Shown one piece after another: positions 5,701-48,300 of a stretch of DNA of 64,000 nt (its first letter is position 1; the number at the start of each line of letters is the position of its first letter). Under the pieces are notes generated by a model. That model saw nothing but the letters and a program-made list of their open reading frames with translations, was not told where the DNA came from and did not search any database. The stretch lies in NCBI RefSeq assembly GCF_964355755.1, contig NC_092675.1, positions 31,634,885 through 31,698,884 of the forward strand, read 5' to 3'. This DNA comes from Antedon mediterranea. Taxonomy: Eukaryota > Animalia > Echinodermata. Both the position numbers and the translations under genes were made by a program.

Positions 5701-8700
5701 TCTCTCATTTTTTTAAATTTCTGTAATACTAATAGAATTGTTTTTATTATCTGTTTTTGTTATAGGATCTTTTATATTTGATAATATTATATTGATAATA
5801 TTGTGCTAAATATCATTTTATACATTTCAGCATTTATCCAATTCAGACCATTCTGTGCGGCAACATTGTCTTTCAATAATAGGAACATTAGGATCCAAAG
5901 AAACACATGTAAAAATTAATGAAAAACAAGAAAGTCCATTACAAGTGTTAACAGCTTATGCAAAAGATCAAGACCCAAGAGTTCGTAGTAGCGCATTTGA
6001 AGCTATGGTGAGTATAAATCATAATAAATCTTAATAAATATAATTTTAATTAGAAAACAAGAAAATCATGTGATTATGTAATGGTGATAAAAGAAAGATA
6101 AACAAGAAATATAGATTATTTCAGAAGTTGAAATGCCAACGTTCCTTGCTTATGAGTAAATAGCAGATAAAATAAACTTAACATAATGGTATTTTGCATT
6201 GTTTTTTTTTGTGCAAAATTCAGGCTGAATTTATAATTATTTGTAATTATATAGTTCTATGTTAATATAAAGTTTGCGGTACACCACGTGTATTAGTTCT
6301 GAAAAGAACTGTTGAGTTTCTCGACGTTTCGATCAATATACTTTGATCGTCCTCAGGAGTGAGAATCTAATTTTGATTATGAATTAAAACGTTAATGGAT
6401 TCCTGGTTTAAATACTTAATAGTTTTCACTTACACAAATGTTTGATAAAATAGTTCCATCAGTCTGAACATGTATTACAATATTTGTGAAAGTGTTGACA
6501 AAGTTCTTAATATAGCCTTAATTGCTCTTACTTAGATGAATATTGTTCTTGTTTATGTGTAATTTTGACAAAAGAGTAATATAATATTTTTTACATTTTT
6601 ATAGTTATCGTTTCATCAAAAGGGTCAAGTTTTGGAACAGTCTATTTATAAACAGGTATACACTGCTCTACATGATGATAGTGAAAGTGTTCGTTTAGCA
6701 GCATTACGCCTTATGTGGGTCATAGGTCATGTCTATCCTGAGAGTCTTATACCTGTAGTTGATTCAGATGAGAAGTTGCGACTTGTTGATGATGCGTTTG
6801 CTAAGATTTGTCAATTAGTAAATGATTCAAGTGTTTTGGTGCGTACCACTGCTGTAGGATTGCTTGGTTCTTTGCATCGTGTCAGCCCACATTTCTTGGA
6901 GCAGACTTTGGATAAGAAGCTGATGTCAGGATTAAGGGTGAGTTTATGCAGTAAAACAAAGAGTACAGTACAAGGAAAATGAAACCTTCGAATGTACCTT
7001 GTCGACATAACCTAATAAGTAAGCTATAGAATTGTACTCTACTATACATCAATCTCCTACTGCATCATTGAATCAGAATTGGTTCTTTTAATTTCGTTTA
7101 GCGTAAAAGAACTGCACATGAGCGGCAAAAAGAACAATTTGTTTCTGGTGAATGGTCCAGTGGTAAAAAGTGGGGAGATGATGCTCCTAAAGAGGAACTT
7201 GATCCAGAGGCTGTAACCTTAATGGATACTGGAGCTTGTGGAGCATTTGTTCATGGACTTGAAGATGAATTCTTAGGTTTGCCAATGATTGTTTTTTATA
7301 TATAACAAATATGTAAATATAGTATTTAAAAACCACCATGACATTTATTTAACCGTTGTATATAATAACATCGATAGTTACAAGCAAATGTGACTATAGT
7401 ACAAAGACCATGTTCATCTGTATTTTTATTGTAACCTCATATCCATACAATTTTTTTTTGTAGGTTTAACCATACTGTACTATTAGTATGATGAAGATTT
7501 TGAAATTCATTGTGTTGTGTGCATAATTGTGACCATAACTGATAAGGTGTATACCTAAAATATAGATAGTTAACATTGTATTGTATCTAATGTGACAATC
7601 CTTTTATATTTAAAGTGATTATTTTACAGAGGTAAGACATGCAGCTTTAGATTCTCTGTGTGAGCTTGCCAGCCAGTCACCAGCATTTGCCTCTTTATCA
7701 TTGGATTATCTGGTGGATATGTTAAATGATGAAATTGAAAGTGTGCGTCTGAATGCTGTATATAGTTTACACAAGATAAGCAAAGACATTGTTTTAAGAG
7801 AAGACCAGCTTGAAACTGTGCTAAATGGCCTTGAGGTTAGTAAAATATTACAAAATAACCACTGATCTAAAAGTATTGAAATATAAAACTATATTCATTG
7901 ACTTCACTGTAATCGTCTTGAGATCAGTCAAATTGATGATTAAAGAAAGAACACCTATATACCATGCATAAAGAAACTCTAATAAACCACCCAGTGATAT
8001 AATGGTAATTCAATCATTTATAAATGGTTAACACTTTCACTGCGTATAACCGGTACTACTGGGTATAAATAGACGTCGTTGAAATATGTATACACGGTAC
8101 TACCGGGTATGGGCAAAACATGATTTAATCGTATTTGCCTATAATATATAGCACCCTCTATATTTTGTCTTGAACCAAAGAATATATATCACAAGAATGA
8201 GTATTCCTCGATTTTCCCTGTAACAGTAATATTGTCCATGTAGTAGGGCGCCGCCATAAGTGTCGATGTATCTGGGATGTATACAACTTTTTGTGACTGT
8301 TTCACTAATCAAAGGTTGGACCACCGGTAGTATTTTCATGATAAAAAATGTTATCAACTACATGCCAACATCATGTTAAATAATATTTGGATATTTAATT
8401 GTTCGTTTTATGCAATTTATTTAGTAAAAACTTCGTATAAACAGTTTGCTTTATCAACCGGGCGCTACGATAGCGTGACCGGGCATGTTGATGTTTTCAC
8501 GAAGGATAGTTTAATAATATTCCTGTTTCTGGTAAAATAAATAAATGTTAATGACATTTAACATTTTGTCCTATTAATAACATGTATTTTATACTAAGTT
8601 ATATCATAAAAACAATACTTAGTCTATATCGTGCCTAGCTTACCTGGATAAACCAACATAAGCCTCTCTCTCCGACGAGAGGTAAACATTACGAAAAGAA

Positions 8701-11700
8701 GAACATTAATAACATTAATTTTTCCCCACCCCCGTCGGATAATGGATCAGTCCGCCACCAGTACGCCCTCAAGTGAGACACACCCACTTATCATCGTTAT
8801 CATTTCTTTTCGTAACGTCGTTGTGTACGTACGTCTTTTTCTGAACACATTCCTGGAATTCCTGAGGAATTTGCGATAAAGACTTTTATACTGTAGACTG
8901 GAAGAGAAGAATAGAGCAAGAAAACGAAGCTAAGTGTAGTAGATCGTTATCTTGTGGTTGGATACGTTTAGAATCGTTACCCTTGGCTAGTTGCCAGGAG
9001 TTAAAATTTAGCGTTGTAAGCCGTTATCCAGAGTGTTTCACCTGGATAGAAATACTGGAAGATCTTTTGTTGTTCGTTAGGCTAGTGGGTAGAAGTAGGT
9101 CTGTTAGATCACCATGCCTAAGCAGGAGTGTGTTAAATGTAGGGGTCCCCGCTCTACCGTGTGTCCGCTGGACACCGTCCAAGTTCAAATCGCTCCCTAA
9201 GCCTAAGGAGCGCACGGAGGCTGTACCACCTCCGGAGGTGGGTACCGCCGATACGGCAGGCCCTCCTGCCGTCGCGCCGGAAGTTAGCCTTCCAGATATG
9301 CCTGCACCGGCTGCGGCCTCTGCGGTTCCGGGGGTGAATGAGATTTCTCCGGGGTTACTGCAAGCCATTGTTGCAGCTGTGAGAGCTCTGCCGAGGGATG
9401 AGCCTGAGGTACCCTCTCAGATTAGACCTCCTCCCCAGATTCCATACATTGATGTTGGCCCACAGCAGACCTCGTTTTTCGATGGTTCGTCCGTCCGGCA
9501 AAGGGATTACGATAGTGACAGGACGATGGCCTCGCTCTCTGACGATGATAGAGATAGCTTAAGAGAACAGGCCGGGCCAGGGGAGGAAGGTCTGCAGGCG
9601 CTAGTTATGCGGACGGTCCCCGCGGTGCTGTCCTTTCTCGGCGTCGATTTCACGTATCGCGAGCCTAAGCATACTCCTTCGTCTAAGCGGGTTTCCACTT
9701 TTGGCGTACGCACGCCCTTTAAGAAGGTATCTTCGTGCCCGGTTACGCCTCTCGATCCAGAACTTGTGGAACGTGTGGAGCTGATCGCTAAGGAGTCCAA
9801 GATTCGTAGGCCTATGCCTTATAGCCTGTCATCGGCTTTTCCGGTGCCGCAGAAACAATTCGAACTGTACATCGCGGCGCCGAGCGTCCCGGAGGCAGCG
9901 AAGGAACGGGTCCGTGAGGACCAGAACCTGGACCCGTCCAGGACTAATTTTTTGAAGCCTTCGGAATCCCGGACAGAGGACGTCCTTACGTCCGTCGACA
10001 GGGCCGCACGCGAGACGCTTAGAGCCGCCTCTATGGCCGGGTACTTGCTATCCTTTCTGGCTGATCCAGAACATCCGCCCCAGGGCGATTCGGACGTGAT
10101 AGCTCTACTACAGCAGATCATGGGCCTGGTTGTTGATCAACAGGCAACGATCTCATTATCTGCGGCCGCGGCCCGTCGCGTTAACGTCTTGGGTGCAACT
10201 GACATCGCACCGACCGATTTCCGTAGGTTTACTACGTCTGACTCCTTCGGGGCGCAGGACTTGTTCTTTGGCTCCTTCTCACAGAAGGAGGATAAATGGG
10301 CTCGTGAGAGGGAAGCTCGTCGGGAGACAAGAGCGCGCTTCCCGCAAAAACGCCGAGCTAGCAATTCACGCTCAAGGACAGCCGCACGACCGCCGCCTGT
10401 CCCTGCTGCTCCTCAGCAGATGCAGCCTCCCCCGCCGCCACCGGCTCAGCCTATGCAAAGTCAGGCTTCTACATCAAGACAGGCTTCACACCCCCCTCGC
10501 GGAATGCGAAATAGGGGTGGCAAAGGCGCCACCAACAGGAGTGGTCGCCGGTATTATAATGTGAAGCGCCGGTGACGGCCCGGGGACGCCCGTCCCTCCA
10601 AGCGAGGGCGGGCAGGTGGGGGGTCGCTTGAAACGGTTTTCACGGGTTTGGGAGACCCTGACCACAGACAGATGGGTTCTCTCCACCGTGACACACGGGT
10701 ATCGTATCGAATTCTCGAGCCCTCCGGTGAGCGGAGGTGCCCGGCACACGAGGATTCCGTCAGAGCCGGAAAAGAGTCAAGCGCTCATGACGGGCCTCGA
10801 AGCACTGCTCCAGAAAGGAGCTGTGGTGCATGTTCAGAAGGAACAACTTACGATCCCGGGACACGAATCCACCGTTTTCCTCGCCCAGAAAAAATCGGGC
10901 GATTGGCGACCCATCCTAAACCTCAAAAGTCTGAACAAGCGGTACATCCGGCCCCGCAGGTTCAGGATGGAGACTGTCTCATCTATCCTGTTGGGGCTAA
11001 GACGAGGGGACTGGGCAGCCACAATAGACTTGAAAGACGCGTACTTTCACGTGCCTATTGCGCAAGAGCACCAGAGTTGGCTGCGCTTCCGCATTCACGA
11101 TCAGGTATACCAATTCGTAGCTCTGCCGTTCGGCCTCTCAACGGCCCCACGAGTGTTTACTCGTCTAGTGAGAACCCTGGCGGCGTTCTTTCATCAACAC
11201 GGCATCAGAGTGTTCATGTACTTAGACGATTGGTTGATCGTGGCCCAGTCCAGGGACCAGCTGCTGAGCAGCTTATCTTTTGTCCGCCTCGTGACGGAAC
11301 AAGCAGGGTTCATAATAAACGAGGAGAAGTCATGTCTTCTCCCTTCTCAGAACCCTCTGTATCTCGGAGCCCAAATAAATTTGGTTACGGGCCGTGCGTG
11401 CCCATCCATCGAGCGTGTGGCCAAGGCAAGAACTGCAGTGCTACATCTTATCAATGCTCAGGCTCCGACGGCGTACGACTGGCTACGCACCTTGGGGTCA
11501 CTGGCCAGCTTCGTCGCCCTCGTTCCGTTCTGCCGGTTAAGGATGCGGCCTCTACATCTGCACCTTCTGGCAGCATACCGCCCAAGATCAGACTCTCTAC
11601 ACAAAGTGGTTCCAACGAATGCGTTCATTATCTCGCATCTCGAATGGTGGCTCGTGGAAGACAGGTTACTTGTGGGCACACCTATACAAAGGTCAATTCC

Positions 11701-14700
11701 GGATGTCCGTGTGGAAACGGACGCATCCGAAGTAGGCTGGGGCGGTCACATACCGTCTCCGGACATTCGCGTCTCCGGCCTCTGGTCGCCCGAGGAGACG
11801 CGCGCCCACATCAACCTGCTCGAACTTTGGGCAGTCGAGCGCTCGTTGGAGGCTCTTCTTCCCCATCTGGCAAATCGCCATGTTCTCGTCAATTCCGACA
11901 ACACAACCGTCGTGGCATACATAAACAGGCAAGGGGGTACACGGTCCCCCACGCTATGTTGCCACACGTGGACGTTGCTAATGTGGTGTATAAGACACAA
12001 CATCCAACTGTCAGCGGCCCACATTGCGGGTCGTCTGAACATAGTGGCGGACGCACTGTCCCGTCCACTTCTACGTCCTACGGAATGGCGTCTTCTTCCA
12101 ATAATCGCCACCCAGATCTTCAACCACTTTGGGCGGCCCCATGTAGATCTGTTTGCGACGTCAGGCAACACGCAGCTCCCGACGTTCTGCAGCCGATATC
12201 GGGATGCACATGCGTGGGCGGTGGATGCCCTGTCCATACCATGGGACAACCTTTGGGCATATGCCTTTCCACCGATTTCAATACTGCCACTGGTCCTGAC
12301 GCACATTCAGCGCCATCAATGCCAAGTCCTACTAATAGCGCCGTATTGGCCCAGGCAGCCGTGGTTTCCACTGCTTCTAGGCCTTCTGTACGATCAGCCG
12401 TTACGTCTTCCGATTCGGAACGACTTGCTGACGCAGGGCCGAGCTCGGTTTGCTCTACCGAACCTCATATCCCTCGACCTGACTGTATGGCCATTGTCAG
12501 GGATCGTTTCAGAGACTCAGGCATTCCAGATGGTCCGGCCGCCCTCGCGGCGAAATCCCGACGGGAATCCACTCTTGCTGTCTACAATAGCCGATTAAAA
12601 CACTTTTTCGAATGGTGCAAGCGCCAGAAGACCGACCCTATGAAAGTGACTTTGGGCCAGGTCTGCGCTTTCCTACATTACCTGTTTGAGTCAGGTCTGC
12701 AGGTTCGCACCGTATCCGGCTATCGGTCTGCCTTGGCTGCAGTAATTCCGAATTTTAAAGACGGCTCGACCATCTCTTCATCCCCTGCAATTTCCAGTTT
12801 GCTTCGCGGGATGTTTCGAGAACGGCCTCCTACTAAGGCCCTGATTCCACGTTGGGACGTCAATGTCGTCCTAGCCGCTCTTATGCGTCCACCCTTCGAG
12901 CCCCTGAGTAGGGCATCACTTTACAACCTGACTCTCAAAACTGCCTTTTTGATTGCACTAGCCTCGTGCAAGCGCAGAGGTGAACTGCATGCTCTTTCTC
13001 TGGAGCCAGGGCACATCAGGTTTGAACGGGGTGGCGCGCGGTTGGTTTTTAGAAAAGATTTCCTTGCAAAATCTCAGACATTGAACTTCTCGCCGCCGAC
13101 TGTGTTTATTCCCACCATTGCTGCATATTCAGGGGTTGAGGAAGACAGACTTTGGTGCCCGGTGCGGGCACTAAAGTTTTACATCAAACGCACAGAGTCC
13201 ATTCGGGTCTCAGCGTCACATCTGTTCGTATCGACAGTTGCACCCTTCCGACCGGCTGCTCGGTCGACGCTGGCAAACTGGGTCGTGGCAGCCATCCGGG
13301 CTGGTTACGACTCCACAAATACGCCTCCTCCGGCACATATGCACCAAGTGCGTGGCATAGCCGCTTCATGGGCGCTGTTTGCTGGGGTGCCCCTTCCAGA
13401 CATCCTGCAAGCGGCATGGTGGCGATCACAGTCCACCTTCACATCCCACTACCTGTCGGATACCTCCGCAAACCAGTCTACGGTGGCGGCTTCAATCTTG
13501 AAGCCCAGACACTAGGTATGTATGACAATGTTTACCTTGCCTCCCGCCTCCGACTAGACTCTAGTCCGGTGCTACACTGGCTTATGTTGGTTTATCCAGG
13601 TAAGCTAGGCACGATATAGACTACACAAACCAACAGTGGTGTTGGTAGTCTATGAGTGCCGCTTACCTGGATAAACGCCCTCCCTACCGTCCCCTCAGGC
13701 AGGTGGTCTTGAGAAATGATGACGATGATAAGTGGGTGTGTCTCACTTGAGGGCGTACTGGTGGCGGACTGATCCATTATCCGACGGGGGTGGGGAAAAA
13801 TTAATGTTATTAATGTTCTTCTTTTCGTAATGTTTACCTCTCGTCGGAGAGAGAGGCTTATGTTGGTTTATCCAGGTAAGCGGCACTCATAGACTACCAA
13901 CACCACTGTTGGTTTGTGTAATTTACCGGGCGTAGAGTAGTACACGGCAATGGTAAAGAATAGGCCGTGCTGAGTAACGATTCGTTGATTTTTGGTGTTG
14001 CTGTGTTCAGGCCTTTTTTGTGAACTAACTTAGCATGTTAGTAAATAATTGTCTGTAAAAGTGAATGTACACTAGTTTGTTAATAAATATGTATTATAAA
14101 ATAGTTTACAATTGCAAAAATTTTTATCATAATTCTATTTAACACATTGACTGCCAAGGCATTTTCCGTAATTTCTGTCCCAGTGCCAAGTCCCGTTTAC
14201 ATATTAAATTACAGTTTGAAAGTGTAACATCTGGTCACAGACTATCATGATGTCATTCAAAATACGATGGCGGGAAAAACCGTTGAGACGTATAAATACG
14301 TCACTGGCAATGGTCCAACAATTTTATTGACTTTGCCAGGAACGTAAATATACGTCGGGGATTTTCCGCGCTAAAATCGGTCAAACCTATCATCGAGAGA
14401 TAAAAACAGTAAACCACACTGAATCATTTCATCCTTTATTATTTTTATTTACTATTAGCGCAATTTATGACATGTTTGAGATGATTATATTGAGTGTGAG
14501 GGCGCCATCGTATCAACCATATTCAATGCATGAGGGAATAAACACAAACAAACATATGACATTTATTTTTAGATTATCGTTTACGTACATCATTCATAAA
14601 CTGCCATGCGATAATTCCTGTTCCAATCACCACTGCCAGCGATTCTACATACAATACAAAAGTGCTACGATTTTGACGTAGTATTACGTCTTGGCAAGTA

Positions 14701-33177: not shown

Positions 33178-36100
33178 ATGAACAAGCAAACAGAGTATGA
33201 CCGTTCTCAAAAGTCTTGCAACCACAAATGTGGTAGGCCTACAATTGATCATCCGATTCCATTTCTTGTGATTGCATGTCTACAATTCCTAACTGCAATT
33301 GCTGCTGGAACATATTTTGGTGGTGTGATAAGCACACTTGAAAAACAATTTCAATTTGACAGTAAAATGTCTGGATTAGTAGGTATCATAAACGATGCAT
33401 CAAGTTTATCAGCTGTTTTATTTGTAACATATTACGGATCGAAGTCAAATCAGCCAAGAATTATTGGAATAGGAGCTATAGTTAGTTCGCTCGGTTATTT
33501 CTGTTGTGCGGTGCCGCATTTTTTCAATGATAATTATCAATACAAAGGCATGTCAACAAACGATGAACAACAAAATACTGGTCCACTTTGCAATGTTACC
33601 CTTGGTAATAATTCGGCTGAAGAAATACTGGAAACAGTGTATGTTGAGAAAGACACGAGTGGCATTGCTTGGCTTTGTATTGGCAATTTGTTGATTGGTT
33701 TTGGTACATCACCATTATTCCCGTTGACACTTACTTATCTTGATGATTCTACAATCGATCCTTCCACAACATCGATTTATATTGGTAATTATACAACCTT
33801 TAATTTACTGTAATCAATTACCATATTTGAAATTTTAGTCGTTTAAATTGATTTTAATGAAAGCTACTTGCATTTATGATCAGTTTAAATGAGTTATTTT
33901 ATGCTTCTCCTAAATTGTTTAACCAATTAAATAATTGTTGTTATAATTATCCTTTCTTAGGTACCTTTATGACGATGACATCATTTGGACCTCTTCTGGG
34001 GTTCTTTACTAGTTACAAGTGTTTGTCATTATACGTTGACTTCGAACGCTTTAGTGTAGAAGACAAGCCACTAGGATTTCGAGATCCAACTTGGCTAGGT
34101 GCTTGGTGGCTTGGATATCTTTGTGTCAGTGCTTTAATGTTATTTTTGTCTTTACCAATGTTTTTCTTTCCAAGACACCTCACCAAGCACGAATGTCAGA
34201 TATGTAGCCGAATGATTAATGATGGTAAAAAAGAAGACATTATGGTTGGAATGTCTTTTCGTATGTTCAATGAATCTAGCGTCCTTGCAAATATTATTGG
34301 TAAGATACAAACTATTACAAAGTCAACCTCAAAAGAAAATTAAAAATATCAATCTGTTTACCAATTTTTATGAAAATTTAAAAATATTTTTCTCTATATG
34401 ATTACATAGCCCGCAAAATATTGTCTATTATACGATGTTGACAAAAACAAAGAAGACAACAGAACGATAAATATCATGTTTGTTAATTTAAGCTTAAATT
34501 AGTTTCTTCCATAAAAATCACCGTATAATTACTATTGTAAACATTTATTTGGTTTATTGTTTAGGTTTTATGAAAGCAATTAAAAGACTGATAATGAATC
34601 CTGTATTGACATTCGTATTATTGGCAACAGCTTGTGACGTAGCAATTATTGGAGGCTTCATATTCTTTGTAGCCAAGTATATTCAAGTGCAGTTTAATGT
34701 AGCTCCAGCTATCGCTTCCATCATCGTTGGTAAGACTTACTGATCATAATGCTCATAACTCATTTTCCTTAAAAACCATAAGATCGCTATTCTTTCAAAA
34801 CTCAAGTGTATCCACATCCACATATAGAAAAAATCAGTTTTCTTTAAAAGGGTTGGGGTGGTTGTGTTTAAAAAAAAATTAAGATGCTCATCATCCGTAA
34901 GCATTAACTAACTGATGGTTGTAGAGATCATCAACGGGAGAAATTTAAAGAACTTCCAACGAAAAGTGACAAAAAGATTACATATGCAATTTTCTTCTCC
35001 ACCGGCATAGTTTGTTGCAGATCACGTCATACGTATTTAGTGTCACTTTTTAAGACCAATTTATGTAAATTTAATTTATTTAATTACAAGAACAGTAATT
35101 CCAACTGTTACGTAAAAAGGTCGAGCGGCTTTTTTTGTAAGAAATATTTCTTGTTATTTTTAGGTCTTACCACAGCTCCAGGTAATATAATTGGCAACGT
35201 TATAAGCAGTTTTATAATAAAAAGATTAAAACTAAAGTTACGCGGCTTATCTCTCATGGTAGTAAGCATCTGTTTGACGGCGGCGTGTTTGTCAATTCCT
35301 GTACTCTTTATTGGATGTACCAATCCTAAAATAGCTGGTGTAACTGTTAACTATGAAAATCACCAACAATTGTAAGTAATTCACATCCATCTAAATATTA
35401 GGGTGTCTAGAAAACTTAGATCTCAGATATATCTGAGTTTTCTAGATCTAGACAACTCAGATATCTGATACTATAAATTTTTTTGATACTGCCACGTTAG
35501 ATAGAAAATGTCTGACGATTTTACCGTCGTATTAGGCCTACTACCCACAACCTGATTGTTTACTCAGCCACAACTCAGACGTTTAATTGATTCCCATCCT
35601 GGTCATCAAGTTAAAGCCCGTATAAACACGATAAGTATGATCAATTATCTAACTTATATTTGTAATTTGTTTGGTTTCATCCTTAACAGAAGTTTACCAG
35701 TTGCTGGTGATGCCTGTAATCAGCATTGCTCATGTTCAAACGGTGTTTACGAACCTGTTTGTGGCGCAGATGGTGTAACGTATCTATCCCCGTGCCATGC
35801 AGGATGTACTACACTACACAATGATATTGCTAACAACAAAATGGTATCAAAATTACTCTCAATATTTTACTGAGTGATTTTTTATAATAATATTTAATAA
35901 TGTAATGAGTTTAGTACAATTTGTTTTTAAACATTTATTAGATTATAATATGTAGGCATATGTGAATAATTAATTCTAACAAAGAATGTATATTGTTTGT
36001 TTGATGTTTTTATAATTTACAGAACTTTTCGGACTGTGCATGCATTGGTCAATCTTACACGGACAGTGACATTCCTGTGGCTATTGAGGGCGTATGCAAT

Positions 36101-39100
36101 TTTGTTTGTGATAAAACATTTGTATTTGCTCTATTTGTTGCAATCATTTCAATGTTTGCTAGTATGAGAACAAATCCATGCGTAATGACAACATTAAGGT
36201 ACCTACCGTATGTCAAGTGTTAGTTCCGCATTTTACAATATTTTTGCACGCACCACCCGTAATTCCGTATTCGACATACATATCGGGATACTTCCTTCAT
36301 GGACAGTCAAACTATTTACCTTTCGTATGAGATTTTTCGTTTTTGGTCCATTTACTCATTTATGCATTTCTTCAATTTATTGGAAAATACCAATAATACT
36401 GTACCAATATGAAAATGTAAAGTTTATTTACTTAGATCTGTAGCAGACGAGGACAGAGCTGTAGCGATGGGTTACCAGAGTCTTGTAGTAAGAACACTAG
36501 GTAATTTTAATGACCTACCTTGCTTCAATATTACTTTATTTTCAAGATGATTCTCTCAATTAGTAAGGGAGTGCAGACGCATTCTCTCCATAAATTCTTC
36601 TTTTTTTCTAATTCGAACCTATCCATAAAATCCTTACGGGCTGCGGCTGCCAAAAATTATTTTTTAAAGAACTGATTGATTACGTTGTAGGTTTCTTACC
36701 TGCTAGCCTATACTTTGGTGCCGCTATTTCTTCAACATGTTTATATCGTCAAGAAACAGATGCTGGAAATGGTGCATGTCTAATATACGATCTTGAACAT
36801 TATCGTTTTGGCTTCATTGGTACTTTTGTCGCTTTGAAGGTTATGGGTGGTATTTTTGCATGTTGTGTCTTTTTGACTGTTAAGGTAAGATATTCTGTTT
36901 TATATAAGAATAGCATGCATTCAATATTTCTATATAATTTGTTTCTACACCATTAATAATGTAATATAATGTTGCGTTGAGGTACTAATGAAGACTCTTA
37001 CTCGCTTGACTGTCGTAACACATATATTGTTTATTCAGTATAATACTTCAGTACAATATACAACTATAAGTATAGATAAGGAACGGACGATCAATGATGC
37101 TGTCAGTGAGGTGTGAAGTGTGTTAGTCTGCTTCTGGAGAAGTGGCTGTGAGGTGTAGATGTTCTTCTGAAGAAATGGCTGTGAGGTGTGTGCTCTGTGA
37201 GGTGGCTGTAAGGTGTGTCTGGGCCCTTCTGAAACTTGGGAGTATATTGGCCCTCGGTTCATTTGCATATGTCACTACGTAATATTAGAGGGTAACGATT
37301 GGTCCTAAGTTGATCCAGGGGTGTTTAAGTGGGAGTGATTGATCTTATCTGGGGAGGTTACAATGATGAATTGGCCCTGTCGAATCTCTGCTTAAAACTG
37401 TCAGTATCTAATTGTTTTACGATGGGAACGGTCGCAAAGTTAAGCTAAGTGTTTTCTTTAGGGACTCTATTATAAACTAAATGGTCATTAAAACATCTGG
37501 ACAAACTCTCCCCTGGACTTTCTGGGTCAAGTTTGTGAACTTATTTGAATTCCGATACAAAGGTCGATTTCTTAAATATAAAAGTATATCGTTATATTAC
37601 ATCCCTCTGTTTCCCTTTTTTTCTTCTTCTAATCTATTTAAAATATAAAAATGGTTATAATGGTGGCATGCAAAATTAAAGTTATATAAAGGAAAAAAAA
37701 ACATTATTATACATATATGCAAAATTGAGTTAGCCAAAACCATTGACTCTGAAGTGTAACCTTATCACTTTCACTCTCTCTCTTCTCTCTCTTTAAAAAA
37801 ATGAAATTAAAAATGAATTTGGTATAAAAATTCGGATTACCGAAATATAAACATCACAACGGTTGGGTTTCCCTAAAAAACATCGGTCAAGAAGTCGACT
37901 CTCGTTAATTATTTGAAATAGAAAAAAATTTTTATAAAGGATAAATTGAAATCAATCGGTGGGTTTATATAATAATCGATAAAAACGGAATGCACTCCAC
38001 GGTATGTCCAACATGTAGGTAGTGGTGTAAGGGATCTCATTCAAATATACCATACCGCAATTCAAGCATTGGTATTTCTTGTTGAAGGATATTTGTTGGC
38101 AATTTTTGTGAAAAAATGTGCCGCAGCATTTGTTGATTGTACAATCAGTATGAAAGTTTTTAATTTCGGGGTTACATTGACAAATTTGGCAGGGGGTATC
38201 TTGGTATTTATTTTCCAGGTACTGCATGTTACGGATGTGCGAATGTAGTTTTTTCTTATATTTAGTTACAACATATCCAAATGGTGAGTGTTCGCTAGGT
38301 TTTAATTCGTCTTGGGGTATGATGCCTGTTTGTTGTCGGACTCTTGAAAAAAATGTTGTGCATTGTGGGGCTTTGATGTCTTTTGTAATTGCTAAGAGCA
38401 GGAGGGTCATAGAATAAATATGTTGTCTGTGAAATGCATGTGTGTTTGGTATACAAGTGGCGATGCCGTCTAGATTAATGGAAAGGTCGATTGTGGAAAA
38501 GTCAAGTAGGGCTGGTTCACTCTTATGCTTCCAAATGTAGTCTATAATGGGGGAGGACATTTTGTCGAAACAACATAAATAACTGCCAATGTGTAAAAGG
38601 GTATTTAATTTGAGGTTTGTCAGTTGGTCTGCTGGACGGATGTCGCAAAGGAATAATAAAACTCTTTTCAAGGAATCTAAAGTAAATGGCATCGTTTTGG
38701 TAATATGGAGAATTACGTTTTGTTCGCTTTGGTAAAGGATTATCTTCTTTATAAGGGCACATTCTGTGGACAGGGGCGTCATTTGAATTTTGTGTTTTAA
38801 GCATTACTGTGTAACGTCAAGCTTTTCGGATTCCATTTTAGGGGGAAATTTGGAATTGACTAAAATTACGATAAATAAAATTAAAATGTATTTAAAATAA
38901 ACAATATTAAACTAAATAAACGATATAAAACTCAAACAATAAAATTTCAAGTTCAACTATTACAACAATCTCACAAAAGTAAATTAACTTATAATTCGAC
39001 AGTAAATAATGTATATTTGATACGCTCGTGCAACTTATTTATAGTCTGCCCATCCGGTTGTTTATATATATATAGCTCGTAATTGGCTCTACTCCTCCCT

Positions 39101-42100
39101 CGAGCGTTAATCAAACGTCAATTGGTCAAATTTAAAGAACTTAGAGAATATGTACAATGAATATATATCAAACAAACGCACATCGATCACCGCCTATCAT
39201 AACGCCACCTATCGTAACACCACCCCCAATACGTAATGTAAACATTCGACAACCTCCAGAGGAACGACTAGTAGACAAAAATAAGCAAAGCAAAGATACT
39301 ACACATCGAAATGTACCAGTTGAATTGTATACATCGCCCAAACCACTAGTACCCAACATAACTGAATTTAAGTCAGCACACATCCCAAAACAACAAGACT
39401 TAGATAGATTAATTGATGTTATTCAAAGAAAGATAATTAGAGATTATAACCTCCCAGTAGATGTTAAACAATTACGTGTTGAACAAGAAACTTCACCATT
39501 TTTTAAGCCAGTTTACGATTATTTAGCTCATGATATCCTTCCAGCTGATAAGAAAGCAGCTCGTGCAGTTCAGAATAAGTCAGAGCAGTACATATTGTGC
39601 AACGGTTTACTATTCCGTTTATTTTTCCAAGATAAAGGTGGAGAATTTGTATTGCAATTAGCTGTTCCTGAAAACTTATCAGAGACTATTATTTCTCAGT
39701 ATCACGACAATTTGTTAAGTAGCCACCAAGGTACGATGCGTACTTACCTTACCATTAGGAAATTATTTTACATGCCCCTTATGTTCGAGAAAGTCAACAA
39801 TTATACCCAAGCGTGTCTCAGATGTCAACAATTTCGTCCCAAAACCGATAAATTACGTCCTTTACACGATCGAGTACCAGCAACTTACCGTCCCTTTCAT
39901 ACACTCAGTCTAGATTTTAAGAGTATGCCAACATCACCTTCAGGTTTTAAACATATTATGGTAGTATGTGATGAGATAACTAGATTTTTGATTTGTGTAC
40001 CTTTGAAATCCATTGATGCCGAAACAATTTGCGAAGCACTAATTCAAAAGGTCATCAGTATTTTTGGGCCCCCATCTCGTCTTATTTCAGATGCAGCAAC
40101 CTCCCTTACAGGAAAATTATTAACACTATTATGTAATACCCTTAATATTGATAGGAAAATCATCAGCGTCCACAATCACGGTAGTTTACAAGTTGAACGT
40201 CATATCCGCACCGTATCGGACCTGTTAAAGGTCAACCTTAACCAATTCGGAACAGATTGGGTTAGATTTGTATCAACAACATGTTATGCTTATAACTCGT
40301 TTTCATCCCCACATCTAGGAAACCACTCCCCTTACGAATTAGTTTTTGGCCGCCAACTTCCAAGTTTGACCTCATTAGCATTTAACCCTATTTCAGGATT
40401 GTCTCATTCCTATGAAGAATACTTTGAACATCTCAAGAAGAAATTTCAAAACATTTCACAGACAATGCTACAATTACAGCGAACACAACAAAACGTCCAA
40501 AACTCGAAAATTTCCCAACGCTTAGAAAAAAGTCCAATTTACTCAGTAGGACAACTCGTATATTTATACAAGCCAACATCATCATCACTAACAGCAAATT
40601 CAAAGAAAATCGCCGCAGAATGGGTCGGACCATTAGTGATTCATGAAGTACTAGACAGAACACACTACATCCTAGCGACGATTAAAGGAGAAATACTTCG
40701 CGACGTATTCAATTATAAAAGACTGAAACCCTGTTTTATGAGAACGCCTAAAGAACGCAAAAATTTTACACATCTACAAAAACTTAAACAATTGTTGAAT
40801 GAACCCACCGATGATAATAACGAGAAAATCCAAAACACCATTAATGTAGTAAATGACGAAACCAATGTTGAACATGATAGGACACCAGCCCAATTGCAAT
40901 CAGATACCCTTACACATCCAACTAAGATAGAACCCCTTAACTTGCAACCTTACATTGACTGTGTAGAGAATAACATGGGATTAGCAGCCCCATTCCAAAT
41001 GAAAGAAGAACAAATTAAGGAACAAACTAATTTAATTATGACAGCACCTAATGATTCAAATATGATATTAAACCGAGGTAGATTTAAAGCAGGACATTTC
41101 CAAGTTTTAGTTTCATATTCTAAACCGACTTCAGCCGAACGCAACACCGATAAAACAAAACACGAATCTAATGATCGCAAATTTTGGTGGAATATTGACA
41201 GATATAACGATACAGATAAATTAATTAAAGAGATCATTAATGATAAACAGATACCGATAAGTGGATCGCCAAAACGATTCATAAAACGTTTGTATAATGC
41301 AACGAATTACTGATTTAATTTTTTTTTGCAAGATTATTTTTAAATTACGACATTTGCTAAATTAATGATAGCATAGTCTACGTATTTGATGAGATTTGTT
41401 TAGTAATGATGTGATTTCAGTTAAAAGAGAATTGAATTTATGTTTAAGTATTGATTTGTAACGAGTTTTTTGATAAAGATTAATTTTGAATTTTGATGAT
41501 CGATATATTGAGATATTGAAAAGAACGACAATCATTTTGTAACAAATATTTTGTTTAACCTTTGAGTCGTTAATCTCAAGCATTAATTAATTGATATACA
41601 ATAACAGGAGATTTTCTTAGTACTTTTAATTGTAATTTTTTTTTAAATTGAGTACAAAAGTCGAATTTGTCGATTGATTGAAATCGTAATTACCTGTGAA
41701 TATAAATGCTTAAATCGATAAAGTTGTGATGATAACGATATATTGTGGATAAGTTTGTGTCAACGGGACACACACATTTGTTTCTTTTAAAGTTTTAAGT
41801 GATTAAGTTTGATATTTTGATTTTAGGCTAATCAGCCACAGTTTCTTGAGTTTTATGTTTTAATTTGATGATTTATGTTTGAAGGCCATTAGAATGCGAT
41901 GAGTTGTCGCACAATTTGATGTATGTTCAATGTAACATACTATTTTTAAGTTTTGTATTTTTATTTGAACTGATTTATGTTTGATTTACGCGAATTTTAT
42001 ACCAAATTAATTTTTAATTTCATTTTTTAAAAAGAGAGAAGAGAGAGAGTGAAAGTGATAAGGTTACACTTCAGAGTAAATGGTTTTGGCTAACTCAATT

Positions 42101-43098
42101 TTGCATATATGTATAATAATGTTTTTTTTTCCTTTATATAACTTTAATTTTGCATGCCACTATTATAACCATTTTTATATGTTAAATAGATTAGAAAAAA
42201 AAGGGAAACAGAGGGATGTAATAAAACGATATACTTTTATATTTAAGAAATCGACCTTTGTATCAGAATTTAAATAGGTTCACAAACTTGACCCAGAAAG
42301 TCCAGAGGAGAGTTTGTCCAGATGTTTTAATGACCATTTAGTTTATAATAGAATCCCTAAAGAAAACACTTAGCTTAATTTTGTGACCTTTCCCATCGTT
42401 AAACCAGGAGTGATTGACACTATTTAAGTACAGATTTGACAGTGTCATCCATCACAGAAATACCTTATTATACCGTTAATCACTCCCACTTAAACACCCC
42501 TGGACCAACTTAGGACCAATCAGTAACCTCTAAGATTACGTAGTGACATATGCAAATGAACCGAGGGCCAATATACTCCCAAGTTTCAGAAGGGCCCAGA
42601 CACACCTTACAGCCACTTCACGGAACACACACCTTACAGCCACTTCACGGAACATCTACACCTCACAGCCACTTCTTCAGAAGAACATCTACACCTTACA
42701 GCCACTTCTTCAGAAACAGACCTACACACTTCACACCTCACCGACAGCATCATTGATCGTCCGTTCCTTATCTATACTTATAGTTGTATATTGTACTGAA
42801 GTATTATACTGAATAAACAATATAATATGTGTTACGACAGTCAAGCGAGTCAGAGTCTTCATTAGTACCTCAACAACGCAACATTATATTACAATAAATA
42901 CATCCTTATTCACATTGTACTTAAACTTGAATTTTATAGTTTTGGAAGACTCCAAGAGATAAGAGAAGACTCCAAGACTCCAAGAGAAGACTCCAAGAGA
43001 AGACTCCAAGAGATAAGAGAATCAAGAAACTGAAAAACCAATACGAGGATTATCCAGCTTCAGCTGATGAAAATAAAATTACAGAAACGTTGGCATAG
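33178..43098 (+). CDS. Organic anion transporting polypeptide (SLCO/OATP family)
   Basis: Exons 33178-33784, 33961-34299, 34565-34729, 35164-35371, 35690-35843, 36023-36198, 36436-36500, 36691-36884 and an inferred last exon 42940-43098. Motifs ISTLEKQF, OATP signature DPTWLGAWWLG, Kazal-like CSC...PVCGADGVTYLSPCHAGC, GACLIYD. Confidence 0.9.
36960..37601 (-). repeat. Left LTR-like unit (642 bp, oriented outward)
   Basis: On minus, the purine tract AGAAGAAGAAAAAAAGGGAAACAGAGGGA (37602-37630) directly precedes TGTAATATAACG. The unit ends CATTATATTACA with AATAAA ~70 nt before the end. Confidence 0.8.
37952..38782 (-). CDS. 276-aa protein with C-terminal RING-like zinc finger (element cargo)
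   Basis: Intact ATG-initiated intronless ORF containing CQIC-x19-CC-x4-H-x2-C-x10-CLNC. Confidence 0.65.
   Translation of the reverse strand: MTPLSTECALIKKIILYQSEQNVILHITKTMPFTLDSLKRVLLFLCDIRPADQLTNLKLNTLLHIGSYLCCFDKMSSPIIDYIWKHKSEPALLDFSTIDLSINLDGIATCIPNTHAFHRQHIYSMTLLLLAITKDIKAPQCTTFFSRVRQQTGIIPQDELKPSEHSPFGYVVTKYKKKLHSHIRNMQYLENKYQDTPCQICQCNPEIKNFHTDCTINKCCGTFFHKNCQQISFNKKYQCLNCGMVYLNEIPYTTTYMLDIPWSAFRFYRLLYKPTD
39000..39156. promoter_or_regulatory. Candidate divergent promoter between the RING and integrase ORFs
   Basis: TATATATATATA at ~39063-39074 and ATTGG (reverse CCAAT) at ~39082 and 39121, in a locally GC-richer patch between head-to-head ATGs. Confidence 0.4.
39157..41313 (+). 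CDS. Stand-alone Ty3/gypsy-type DDE integrase (718 aa)
   Basis: H-x6-H-x29-C-x2-C zinc finger. D (LSLDF), D (LISDA) and E (QVER) with 34 residues between the second D and E. SPYELVFGR and a GPY/F-like WVGPLVI. In-frame TAG at 39142 just upstream of acaATG. Confidence 0.93.
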   Translation: MNIYQTNAHRSPPIITPPIVTPPPIRNVNIRQPPEERLVDKNKQSKDTTHRNVPVELYTSPKPLVPNITEFKSAHIPKQQDLDRLIDVIQRKIIRDYNLPVDVKQLRVEQETSPFFKPVYDYLAHDILPADKKAARAVQNKSEQYILCNGLLFRLFFQDKGGEFVLQLAVPENLSETIISQYHDNLLSSHQGTMRTYLTIRKLFYMPLMFEKVNNYTQACLRCQQFRPKTDKLRPLHDRVPATYRPFHTLSLDFKSMPTSPSGFKHIMVVCDEITRFLICVPLKSIDAETICEALIQKVISIFGPPSRLISDAATSLTGKLLTLLCNTLNIDRKIISVHNHGSLQVERHIRTVSDLLKVNLNQFGTDWVRFVSTTCYAYNSFSSPHLGNHSPYELVFGRQLPSLTSLAFNPISGLSHSYEEYFEHLKKKFQNISQTMLQLQRTQQNVQNSKISQRLEKSPIYSVGQLVYLYKPTSSSLTANSKKIAAEWVGPLVIHEVLDRTHYILATIKGEILRDVFNYKRLKPCFMRTPKERKNFTHLQKLKQLLNEPTDDNNEKIQNTINVVNDETNVEHDRTPAQLQSDTLTHPTKIEPLNLQPYIDCVENNMGLAAPFQMKEEQIKEQTNLIMTAPNDSNMILNRGRFKAGHFQVLVSYSKPTSAERNTDKTKHESNDRKFWWNIDRYNDTDKLIKEIINDKQIPISGSPKRFIKRLYNATNY
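42217..42893 (+). repeat. Right LTR-like unit (677 bp, oriented outward)
   Basis: Purine tract AGAAAAAAAAGGGAAACAGAGGGA (42193-42216) directly precedes TGTAATAAAACG. CCAAT at 42516, octamer ATGCAAAT at 42550, short tandem repeats ~42600-42740, AATAAA at 42812, and an end of CATTATATTACA. Confidence 0.8.
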
Positions 43099-45358: not shown

Positions 45359-48300
45359 ATGGAAGAAGGTGGCAGAAAACGGTTTAAATTTTTAAAACTT
45401 GATAAACAATGTGTCTTTACTACTGATAAAAATGTTATTGAACTCTTTCAGAAGTGGTGAGTCTCGAATCACAAATCGGTTATTATTAATTATAATTATT
45501 TGTTGCATCTAATTCTAGGCTAAGGCCCTAGCTAGTAGGCCTAGGGGCGCTAATGCAGTTTCGTACCCACCCCTTAAAATTACTCAAAATCTTCATCCAA
45601 CCTACTCACGAGTTGTCCGCCCTGGTCCAGTGGATCAAATTTAGCACCAGTGGAGCACACAGTAGTGATATAAAATAGAAATAAGTCACTAAATTTATTA
45701 TCTTTTCGTATGTTAATACACTGTGTTGTGCTCAAGTGAACACAATTTGGAGCCAGTGGAGCACAGTGATATAAAATTATAAATAGAAACAAGTCACTGA
45801 ATGTTAATTATTTTGCTGGCGTATTTATTTTCGTATTTTAATACACTGTGTTCAAGTGGACCCAATTTGGCACGCGCGCCCAGAGGAGCACAGTGATATA
45901 AAATAGAAAAAGTCACTGCATTTTAATATATTTTCATATTTTAATACACTGTGCTTTAAGTGGACCCAATTTGGTGCCAGGGGAGCACAGTTATATAAAA
46001 TAGAAATAAGTTACTGAATTTTAAAATCTTTTCAAATGTTAATACACTGTGCTCAAGTGGACCCAATTTGGAGCCAGTGGAGCACAGTGATATAAAATAG
46101 AAACAAGTCACTGCATTTTTTTAATATCTTATGTATGTTAATACACTAAAAATGACTTTTCAATGTTTCATTTTAGTATTCTTTATTTTTTTGCATAAAA
46201 AAGAAAGGGACTGTAAATTATAAACTTAATATCTTTTATAGTATTCAATTAGATCATAGTTCAAGAATTTAGATTTTCACTCCAATTAAGTATCCAGTAC
46301 ATGGTGACTAAGTTGTTCCATCCAACCCAATATATTTATAGAAAAGACAACTTCAAAGAAAATGTCACTTAGAAGGGACACAGCCCAAGGCTATTAAGTA
46401 CATTTTTTTGTATCTTTATGTATGCCTACCTATATCCAGTGAACATGATGTTAACATTAAATATTCTCATCCCTAATGTGGGATTTTAACGCGTTTCTAA
46501 TTATACCAATCAGTTCCAGAGTTTTGGACAATTTTGGGGTAAGGAACACAAATATCTGTAAGTGCAGTTTTACTTGCTCATAATTTTTGGTATCAATGTA
46601 TAAAGCAGTGTCTCTTTATTTTTATGTAAGTTGATTGTAATTTAGATAATTAATGACATCACATAAAGACATTGGTTATGTTTTTTAAAGATTTATTGTC
46701 CCCCAAAAACAAGAAAAATGAAGATTAATTATAATTTTTTTTTTATTCCCCAATGTTTTTTGCCTTTTATTTTATCCATTTACACAAGGTAGGTCCATAG
46801 AATATATAATCAAAAACAATCCCTCAGGATGTATCCTCTTTTGTGGATTTAGAGGCTATCCCTGGAATCATACAAATGCATGTTTTTTCTATGTTTGTTT
46901 TCTTTTTATGTATGGTATCAAATCAATTTGTAAGTTATTTCTTTCGTCTATGTGGATTGTTATGTGTTTCTTTTAATTTCATCAGCTAATTTGTACATGC
47001 ATGTCAAAATAGAAGTGACGAAATGCCTGAAACCACAATGAATAACTCGCCGGGTAGATTTTTCTATGCACAAGTTTAAAATGAAAAAATATACTTTAAA
47101 TTATAGGGGTGTAAAGATGCTTATTCAACACTATAACTATGATCAGATGTTTCAAACTTACATGAAAGATGATTTTATGAAGGTAACTTGTTCATTGATC
47201 AATCTTCTTCTCATTCTATTTTAATTTTGTTTATTCACATGGATTCTAGTCAGCAATTCAGCTTGACGTGGTTGTTGACTGATTTCAGCAAGCTGTACCG
47301 ATTTAGCCAAATATGTCATGTTTTGTCATTCTTTGCATCGTGCAAACAGTTCAAAACATGCACTGAATGCACTTGTGGCAAATTTTAACACTAAGCCCTA
47401 AATTATGTCTCGTCTTTCATTGTGGTATTCTGAATAATTATTTTACATTATATAAAGTTCTGGTTTTACACTTTACTGCATATTATATTTTTCCTTAAAC
47501 CTAAACAGAAAATAAGCCATAATATGCAGTTTGGACAACCTCTGTATCTACGTACGTGTGTAAAATACTACATCATACATTCTTTGTTGACGTCAATACC
47601 ATACGTGATATTAATTGTTGATGCGTTTCAACGTGCGGATTGCATTTCACATGTTTATAATTTATTTGATGAAAATCGAATAAAAGTTTATTTTAGACAG
47701 TTATTAAAACAAATGAATTATTATTATTATTATATCAAAATTTATAAAGCGTCAATTCAAAGACCGAGGTACAAAATCAAAGGCGCTGGGCATGTTAGTG
47801 GTCGAAAAAATGAGTTTTGAGCAATTTTTTAAATAAGGCAACAGAAGAGCAGTGTTTAATTTGTGGGGGGAGTGAATTCCAGAGTGTGGGTGCAGCAAAA
47901 GAAAACGATCTATGACCAAAGGTTTTAGTGGCTATGCGTGGAACAGAGAGTAAAAAATCATCAGATGATCTAAGAGTTCGTCCAGGAACATAAAAGGCGA
48001 TTAATTGACGGATGTAAGCAGGTTGGTTGAAAAGAAGTGCTTTAAAAGTAAGGAGCAAGATTTTTCGTTGAGTGGAGAGACTATTCCATTCAATGCTCTA
48101 TTTTACCCGGCTCCACCTCATTAAATAGTCATAATTCATCATTGTATACCACAAACTATCTACTGTAGCACGTTTTTTTTTCAGGAGTTTTTTGAAGATT
48201 CAAATGTCACAGACACCTTAAACATTTTAAACAGCAGTGGTGTTGCTACAAACTTTGGTAGGTTAATCATTTATTTGATACAAATTATATAATTAACTAA

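Follow-up and report, generated by a model that had tools for sequence, protein, structure and literature searches.

The inverted unit and its host intron

The locus examined here is an intron of an OATP/SLCO gene of the echinoderm Antedon mediterranea, within a 64,000-nucleotide stretch of contig NC_092675.1 (positions 31,634,885 to 31,698,884; hereafter the window). The intron holds a 5934-bp unit (36960-42893) that begins with TGTAA, ends with TTACA and carries an integrase frame between two inverted arms. ATAA flanks the unit on both sides, a match expected by chance in about 1.1% of cases from the local base composition, and duplications of 5 or 6 bp do not fit. The first-pass annotation had described these termini, the ATAA duplication and arms of about 0.9 kb, and both the coordinates and the arms were confirmed. 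The arms (36960-37834, 875 bp, and 41991-42893, 903 bp) align in inverted orientation at 88.7% (blastn, gaps included).

A purine tract ending in GAGGGA precedes the TG...CA unit of each arm, which resembles a long terminal repeat (LTR). The pairs of polypurine tract (PPT) and LTR-like unit (642 and 677 bp) proposed for the two arms were found, each with CCAAT, octamer and AATAAA motifs; in the right LTR these lie at 42516 and 42568 (CCAAT), 42550 (octamer) and 42812 (AATAAA). The 12-bp inverted ends attributed to each LTR are present but imperfect (11/12 and 10/12, by eye). As originally reported, the unit has no gag, reverse transcriptase (RT) or primer-binding site (PBS): tblastn with probes from related loci detected no RT, RNase H or gag within the unit, and TGG follows neither LTR. 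Compared with a complete Ty3/gypsy element, the unit has its LTRs inverted rather than direct and is without PBS, gag, RT and RNase H. No further copy of the unit's LTR occurs within the window.

The reading of the two arms as LTR-retrotransposon 3' ends, placed head to head, was supported. Two parents, here called A and B, meet in the unit at a 4-base overlap, with intact U5 ends at both host borders and the 4-bp duplication outside them (Table 1). Parent A gives a truncated pol gene with the integrase, the 3' untranslated region (UTR), the PPT and the LTR. Parent B gives a piece of the same 3' UTR, a RING-like gene, the distal UTR, the PPT and the LTR. About 230 bp of inner sequence, PPT included, is common to both arms upstream of the LTRs and differs by 2.2%, compared with 7.7% in the LTRs. 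Over the whole alignment, 54 of 865 aligned columns are substitutions (6.2%), 48 columns are gaps, and one block of 100 columns differs by 28%.

Pfam matches, intron borders and frame bore out the earlier assignment of the host to an SLCO (OATP) gene. The intron begins with GT at 36885, ends with AG at 42938-42939 and is in phase 0 on both sides; when the unit and one ATAA are subtracted, 117 nt are left. No paralogous OATP intron for comparison was present in the window. Another OATP-gene intron, at about 35115-35470, contains a short high-depth repeat with a small palindrome (35429-35464).

Table 1. Features of the inverted unit and its host intron, in window positions.
Feature	Position	Strand	Basis
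OATP/SLCO host intron containing the unit	36885..42939	+	OATP Pfam matches; borders and frame; public run X5 departs at 36884
Left copy of 4-bp duplication, ATAA	36956..36959	+	Sequence; chance about 1.1%
3'-type LTR of parent B, 642 bp, TG...CA, U5 end outward	36960..37601	-	PPT/LTR border same as that of the PBS-bearing LTR of relative L002
PPT (adjoining 37601) and distal 3' UTR common to the right arm	37602..37834	-	Arm alignment
Accessory open reading frame (ORF) of parent B, 283 codons stop to stop, RING-like finger at C-terminus (residues ~193-254)	37952..38803	-	Cysteine pattern
Predicted internal promoter of accessory gene	38980..39136	-	CCAAT 39125 and 39086, TGACGT 39120, TATA-like 39068-39043; function inferred
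Piece of parent B's pol 3' UTR	39104..39172	-	Homologous to 41915-41991; continuation matches 41885-41910
Fusion junction, 4-base overlap CAAA common to both halves	39169..39172		Left-parent contig departs after 39172; pol contigs start at 39169
5'-truncated pol of parent A	39169..41313	+	End of RNase H-integrase linker, HHCC finger, D256-D315-E350 core, GPY/F-like motif, C-terminal tail
3' UTR and PPT of parent A	41314..42216	+	Sequence
3'-type LTR of parent A, 677 bp, U5 end outward	42217..42893	+	Arm alignment, borders
Right copy of 4-bp duplication, ATAA	42894..42897	+	Sequence

The integrase frame and related loci

The integrase had been called stand-alone, which holds in that no RT or gag lies alongside it but does not hold for its origin: it is the cut-off end of a pol polyprotein. 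Its translation (P0001) starts within the proline-rich linker between RNase H and integrase, retains an intact HHCC finger and D-D(35)-E core, and has a GPL motif at residue 494. Only integrase-type domains were found in Pfam, without an OTU or Ulp1 domain, and the best solved structural relative is Ty3 Gag-Pol (E 3e-22). In a related locus, L001, whose pol is 1589 aa long, P0001 matches residues 912-1576 of that protein; it also aligns to the end of the pol of a second locus, L003. The frame is open from an ATG at 39157, and that ATG sits in parent-B sequence.

The nearest neighbours of P0001 are pol proteins with 54-70% identity, and the named homologues come from sea urchin, limpet, sea cucumber and crinoid; together with the TTAGGG repeats of the window, these mark the host as an animal. 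Among 37 homologues, RNase H lies upstream of the integrase in the two best and in several others; many of the remainder come from short contigs. A quick tree, built from search matches only and with no Ginger reference, kept 34 of 40 rows (four were too short and two were without the core). P0001 had an ordinary branch length there (0.19) and belonged to a clade of 20 rows (SH-aLRT 98), six of which bear RNase H or RT; long branches occurred among the distant rows.

Five related loci were compared. RT, RNase H and integrase occur in that order in four of them, the fifth being a 2.3 kb fragment, and none of the five has a long inverted repeat. L003 has gag followed by a 1614-aa pol. In L002, pol is followed by a PPT that shares the GAGGGA border, then by a 297-bp TG...CA LTR, a PBS-like site starting with TGG, and gag. 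The arrangement at L002 4631-8932, in which pol, PPT, a single 297-bp LTR, the PBS-like site, a leader of about 1.4 kb and gag follow one another, is that of a tandem pair sharing an LTR or of a one-LTR circle. The RT active-site motif reads HHDD and VHDD in the pol proteins of L001 and L003, compared with the usual YxDD, and may help to name the lineage. A search for relatives in viral contigs gave 17 pattern matches, none of which was confirmed.

Central junction in public contigs

Thirteen public runs from six studies match part of the stretch, and five of these (X1, X5, X8, X9 and X12) were compared, all as contigs; the central junction was checked in X1, X5, X8 and X12. No contig bridged 39169-39172 in any of the four runs, though both halves are high-depth repeats. 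Bins 39144-39165 were covered by one contig in X1 (depth 3636) and by none in the other three. The X1 contig matches 39095-39172 and then diverges; beyond 39172 its letters correspond to opposite-strand positions 41885-41910 in the pol 3' UTR (24/26; 0/100 shuffles). A second form of the left half departs at 39136 in X1, X5 and X8. In X1 it is joined to 41944, on opposite strands; in X8 the letters past 39136 match 41941-41958 at 16/18 (3/100 shuffles), with no match at one mismatch. On the other side of the junction, the pol contigs of X1, X5 and X8 start at 39169 with different upstream letters. An X9 contig of 2465 nt has 1749 letters upstream of its match.

Depths in X1 were 5190 and 5079 for contigs of the RING-like region and higher still over the integrase and LTR, compared with 279-318 for contigs of the host intron. 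Although contig depth does not measure copy number, both halves are clearly repeats. A variant of depth 137 that branches at 39136 survived in X1 beside contigs of depth 3600-5200, so a low-depth branch could survive there. The junction check excludes an amplified family in the sampled runs; a few private copies may exist. No set of whole-unit copies with differing target duplications was seen in these contig-filtered data, which include no genome, the junction being bridged in none of the four runs.

Parent B and its RING-like gene

The piece of pol 3' UTR assigned to parent B was recognized from the reverse complement of 39104-39172, which aligns to 41915-41991 with a local alignment score of 63; none of 500 shuffles reached this score (highest 60). 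By the contig continuations, the pol 3' UTR of parent B normally leads, in a single direction, into a promoter-like region and the RING-like gene, and then into the distal UTR, the PPT and the LTR; parent B is an ordinary element whose 3' UTR houses an accessory gene. The inner sequence common to both arms is accounted for by this order, being the UTR that follows the accessory cassette.

The accessory ORF had a single weak relative, the RING-H2 protein P0040 (HMMER, E 4.6e-4). The ORF alone gave no Pfam RING match, no relatives among 252 candidates and no usable Atlas match, and its single-sequence fold was too poor for use (pLDDT 40.9). The cysteine pattern together with the one weak RING-H2 match suggests a putative RING protein; an E3 ligase role would be a guess. 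In the window copy, an in-frame stop (38804-38806) cuts off an upstream ATG. The window differs there from the public contigs, and the stop is a private lesion or a sequencing error. Contigs of the accessory cassette (37952-39136, minus strand) occur in runs of three organisms and are about 96% alike in X8, and the cassette has almost no protein relatives.

A GDSL/SGNH-like ORF, below the Pfam cut-off, immediately follows pol in L001 (5217-5810). The parent lineage seems to exchange 3' accessory genes, RING-like in the unit and GDSL-like in L001. ORF3s located behind pol, with GDSL and exonuclease types among them, are described for rotifer elements (PMC5408684).

Origin of the unit

Two sister subfamilies of a Ty3/gypsy-type LTR retrotransposon each contributed a 3' end to the unit, the two being joined head to head, and the result is quite probably a one-off chimera of two incomplete cDNAs that was inserted via two U5 ends. 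The first-pass annotation had listed a one-off fusion of two 5'-truncated LTR elements among its alternatives, and this is the explanation that the data support. The insertion was likely made once, by the family's integrase, and the unit probably reflects a rare accident during replication, not a new class of mobile element. An intron that reads in phase through both host borders, together with the 4-bp duplication, supports this origin.

Formation of such a chimera would begin with the co-packaging of A and B RNAs. Both minus strands would stop early, that of A in the RNase H-integrase linker and that of B in the 3' UTR, and their 3' ends, complementary over 39169-39172, could prime each other to give a linear DNA with a U5 end on each side. 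Integrase supplied by the particle would then insert this DNA with a 4-bp staggered cut. In a variant with the same product, integrase would pair the two U5 ends first and host end-joining would close the inner ends later; we lean slightly toward mutual priming as the first step, and the sequence cannot separate the two. Symmetric intasomes assembled on U5 ends are reported to carry out concerted integration in vitro (PMC3738965), and in yeast, DNA breaks are described as capturing joined fragments of Ty and other DNA, the break ends showing microhomology (PMC11372161).

Because it has neither a PBS nor an inward LTR promoter nor RT, the unit is predicted to be inactive as a retrotransposon. 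Autointegration was considered and rejected; judged by retroviral biology, it would keep one PBS-bearing half. A word search of open-access titles and the starts of abstracts, with Repbase, supplements and subscription papers outside its scope, returned no description of a head-to-head LTR chimera with a target duplication.

The 6.2% difference between the arms is best read as a difference between subfamilies, with the fusion itself being recent, because each half is about 99% like its own contigs and because the integrase ORF would seldom have survived an old insertion. The RING-like region showed no differences from X1 contigs in 219 nt, and the integrase showed five differences from X5 contigs in 788 nt. 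In 1000 trials that let 3.1% per arm accrue neutrally once the unit was in place (indels ignored), the ORF remained stop-free in 3.8%.

Several points weigh against an origin by a single accident. The integrase frame is open from the ATG at 39157, beside CCAAT boxes, which such an accident does not predict (a frame match has a chance of about 1/3), and the 4-bp duplication, taken alone, would occur by chance about 1% of the time. Contigs lose rare variants, and a few copies of the junction may exist in other individuals. X1 probably comes from another individual, given its fixed differences from the window in host-flank sequence, and the junction was seen in the window alone. X12 spans just 39251-39310 and is little informative at the junction. 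The empty site was not seen in the evidence at hand, which consists of contigs with no genome or long reads. Finally, no PBS-bearing 5' LTR of Antedon mediterranea was present among the X-run loose ends listed (468 more were unlisted).

Alternative explanations

Two elements that inserted independently in opposite orientations, and that a genomic deletion afterwards fused at the 4-base overlap, would also account for the two different parents and the microhomology between them, and both subfamilies are abundant. We regard this history as unlikely. The ATAA match would have to be the chance event of about 1%, and the deletion would have removed host DNA, yet the leftover intron is a plausible 117 nt with in-phase borders.

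Very unlikely, in our estimate, is a young inverted-LTR element that moves as DNA (a proto-Ginger). From a two-way internal promoter, the RING-like gene would be transcribed leftward and a free integrase rightward, with an LTR polyadenylation site terminating each transcript; the integrase would excise the element and reinsert it via its U5 ends. The intact HHCC finger and D-D(35)-E core, the in-frame ATG at 39157, the TGT termini and the 4-bp duplication are what such an element would have, and Bao et al. propose that Ginger1 may derive from a Gypsy element (PMC2836005). The central junction was bridged in none of the four runs, however, though both halves are deep repeats; inverted arms occur in none of the five related loci; and just about 30 bp separate the last CCAAT from the ATG. 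This mode of movement also requires excision, and integrases of the retroviral type, which work on free linear ends, are not known to perform it. The same very low probability is given to a DNA transposon at birth, with an intact gypsy integrase under a new start codon, a two-way promoter and two U5 ends, that would already be copying in the lineage of the sequenced individual.

An assembly or read chimera is a still poorer candidate. It would explain a junction found in no public contig, and the window lies within 20 kb of telomeric repeats, but fold-back chimeras yield identical arms, not arms that are 6.2% apart, and the host exons are in phase on both sides of a unit with a 4-bp duplication. 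Assemblers are not known to join at a 4-base overlap. Least credible of all is a non-autonomous partner element that depends on RT and has PPT priming on both strands. A PPT does precede each LTR, but the unit has no PBS, both LTRs face outward and leave no promoter for a full-length RNA, and the junction is not amplified. The proposal of an undescribed element class, whether as an LTR-to-Ginger transition or as a partner with two PPTs, was not sustained: besides the unbridged junction, the halves continue into parent sequence in three of the four runs, and RT-RNase H-integrase order is found in four of the five related loci.

Comparison with known elements

The unit resembles Ty3/gypsy elements (Metaviridae) in its integrase of the HHCC-DDE-GPY/F type, its TG...CA LTRs, its PPTs and its 4-bp duplication, and its relatives have gag and RT-RNase H-integrase. 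It differs from them in having two inverted 3' halves and no 5' half, and in an accessory gene that is RING-like and seemingly has its own promoter rather than a spliced message.

As in Ginger1 and Ginger2, a gypsy-like integrase lies between inverted ends that start with TGT and are flanked by a 4-bp duplication (PMC2836005). The arms of the unit are 875-903 bp long and contain PPT and LTR, whereas those described in that source measure 40-270 bp in Ginger1 and about 50-180 bp in animal Ginger2 (PMC2836005). The target of the unit is ATAA, compared with CCGG/CCGT for Ginger1 and RTATAY for Ginger2 (PMC2836005). Ginger1 transposases are described with a C-terminal OTU, Ulp1 or PHD domain, absent in one known family, and the unit's integrase has none of these in Pfam; Ginger2/Tdd elements, as characterized there, have no GPY/F motif and a short terminal inverted repeat (TIR), whereas the unit has a GPL motif and long arms (PMC2836005). 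In further contrast to Ginger, the integrase of the unit is a fragment of a living pol, and nothing points to multiple copies.

Aberrant retroviral integrations and cDNA fragments joined through microhomology are likewise one-off, rearranged inserts (PMC5041404, PMC11372161). The aberrant retroviral insertions that are described show damaged host junctions, whereas the host junctions of the unit are clean and integrase-type, with a duplication, and its abnormal joint is internal, between two cDNAs (PMC5041404). Troyka and the Kuafuorterviruses are LTR retroelements of aquatic animals that share the Gypsy-like domain order (PMC12440569, PMC11673190). Troyka was rejected as the identity of the unit; its published description gives CG...CG ends, a 3-bp duplication, LTRs of 100-400 bp and no GPY/F motif, compared with TG...CA, 4 bp, 642-677 bp and GPL in the unit (PMC12440569).

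As a one-off product, the unit is a clean record from nature that a gypsy integrase can insert, in the germ line of an animal, a molecule made from two different cDNAs and bearing a U5 end on each side. It shows a one-step route from an LTR retrotransposon to an integrase-only unit with inverted TG ends, a route proposed for Ginger1 in the account of that group (PMC2836005). The unit is the structure that a gypsy-to-Ginger transition would need and shows no sign of movement; without evidence of mobility it is no new class. For annotators, such chimeras resemble TIR transposons.

Other features of the window

A GC-rich element at 8620-13896 is bounded by inverted ends of 188 bp (96.8%) and carries an RT ORF at 10565-12595, which overlaps a second ORF (10576-13512) with a weak phage-integrase SAM-like match; from these features it looks like a DIRS1-type tyrosine-recombinase retrotransposon. 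TTAGGG telomeric repeats occupy about 61000-64000, and fragments of non-LTR retrotransposons with a 1 kb direct repeat lie just inside them (55842-59709). One 97-bp satellite family is arrayed at 1-1172 and again at 45623-46147.

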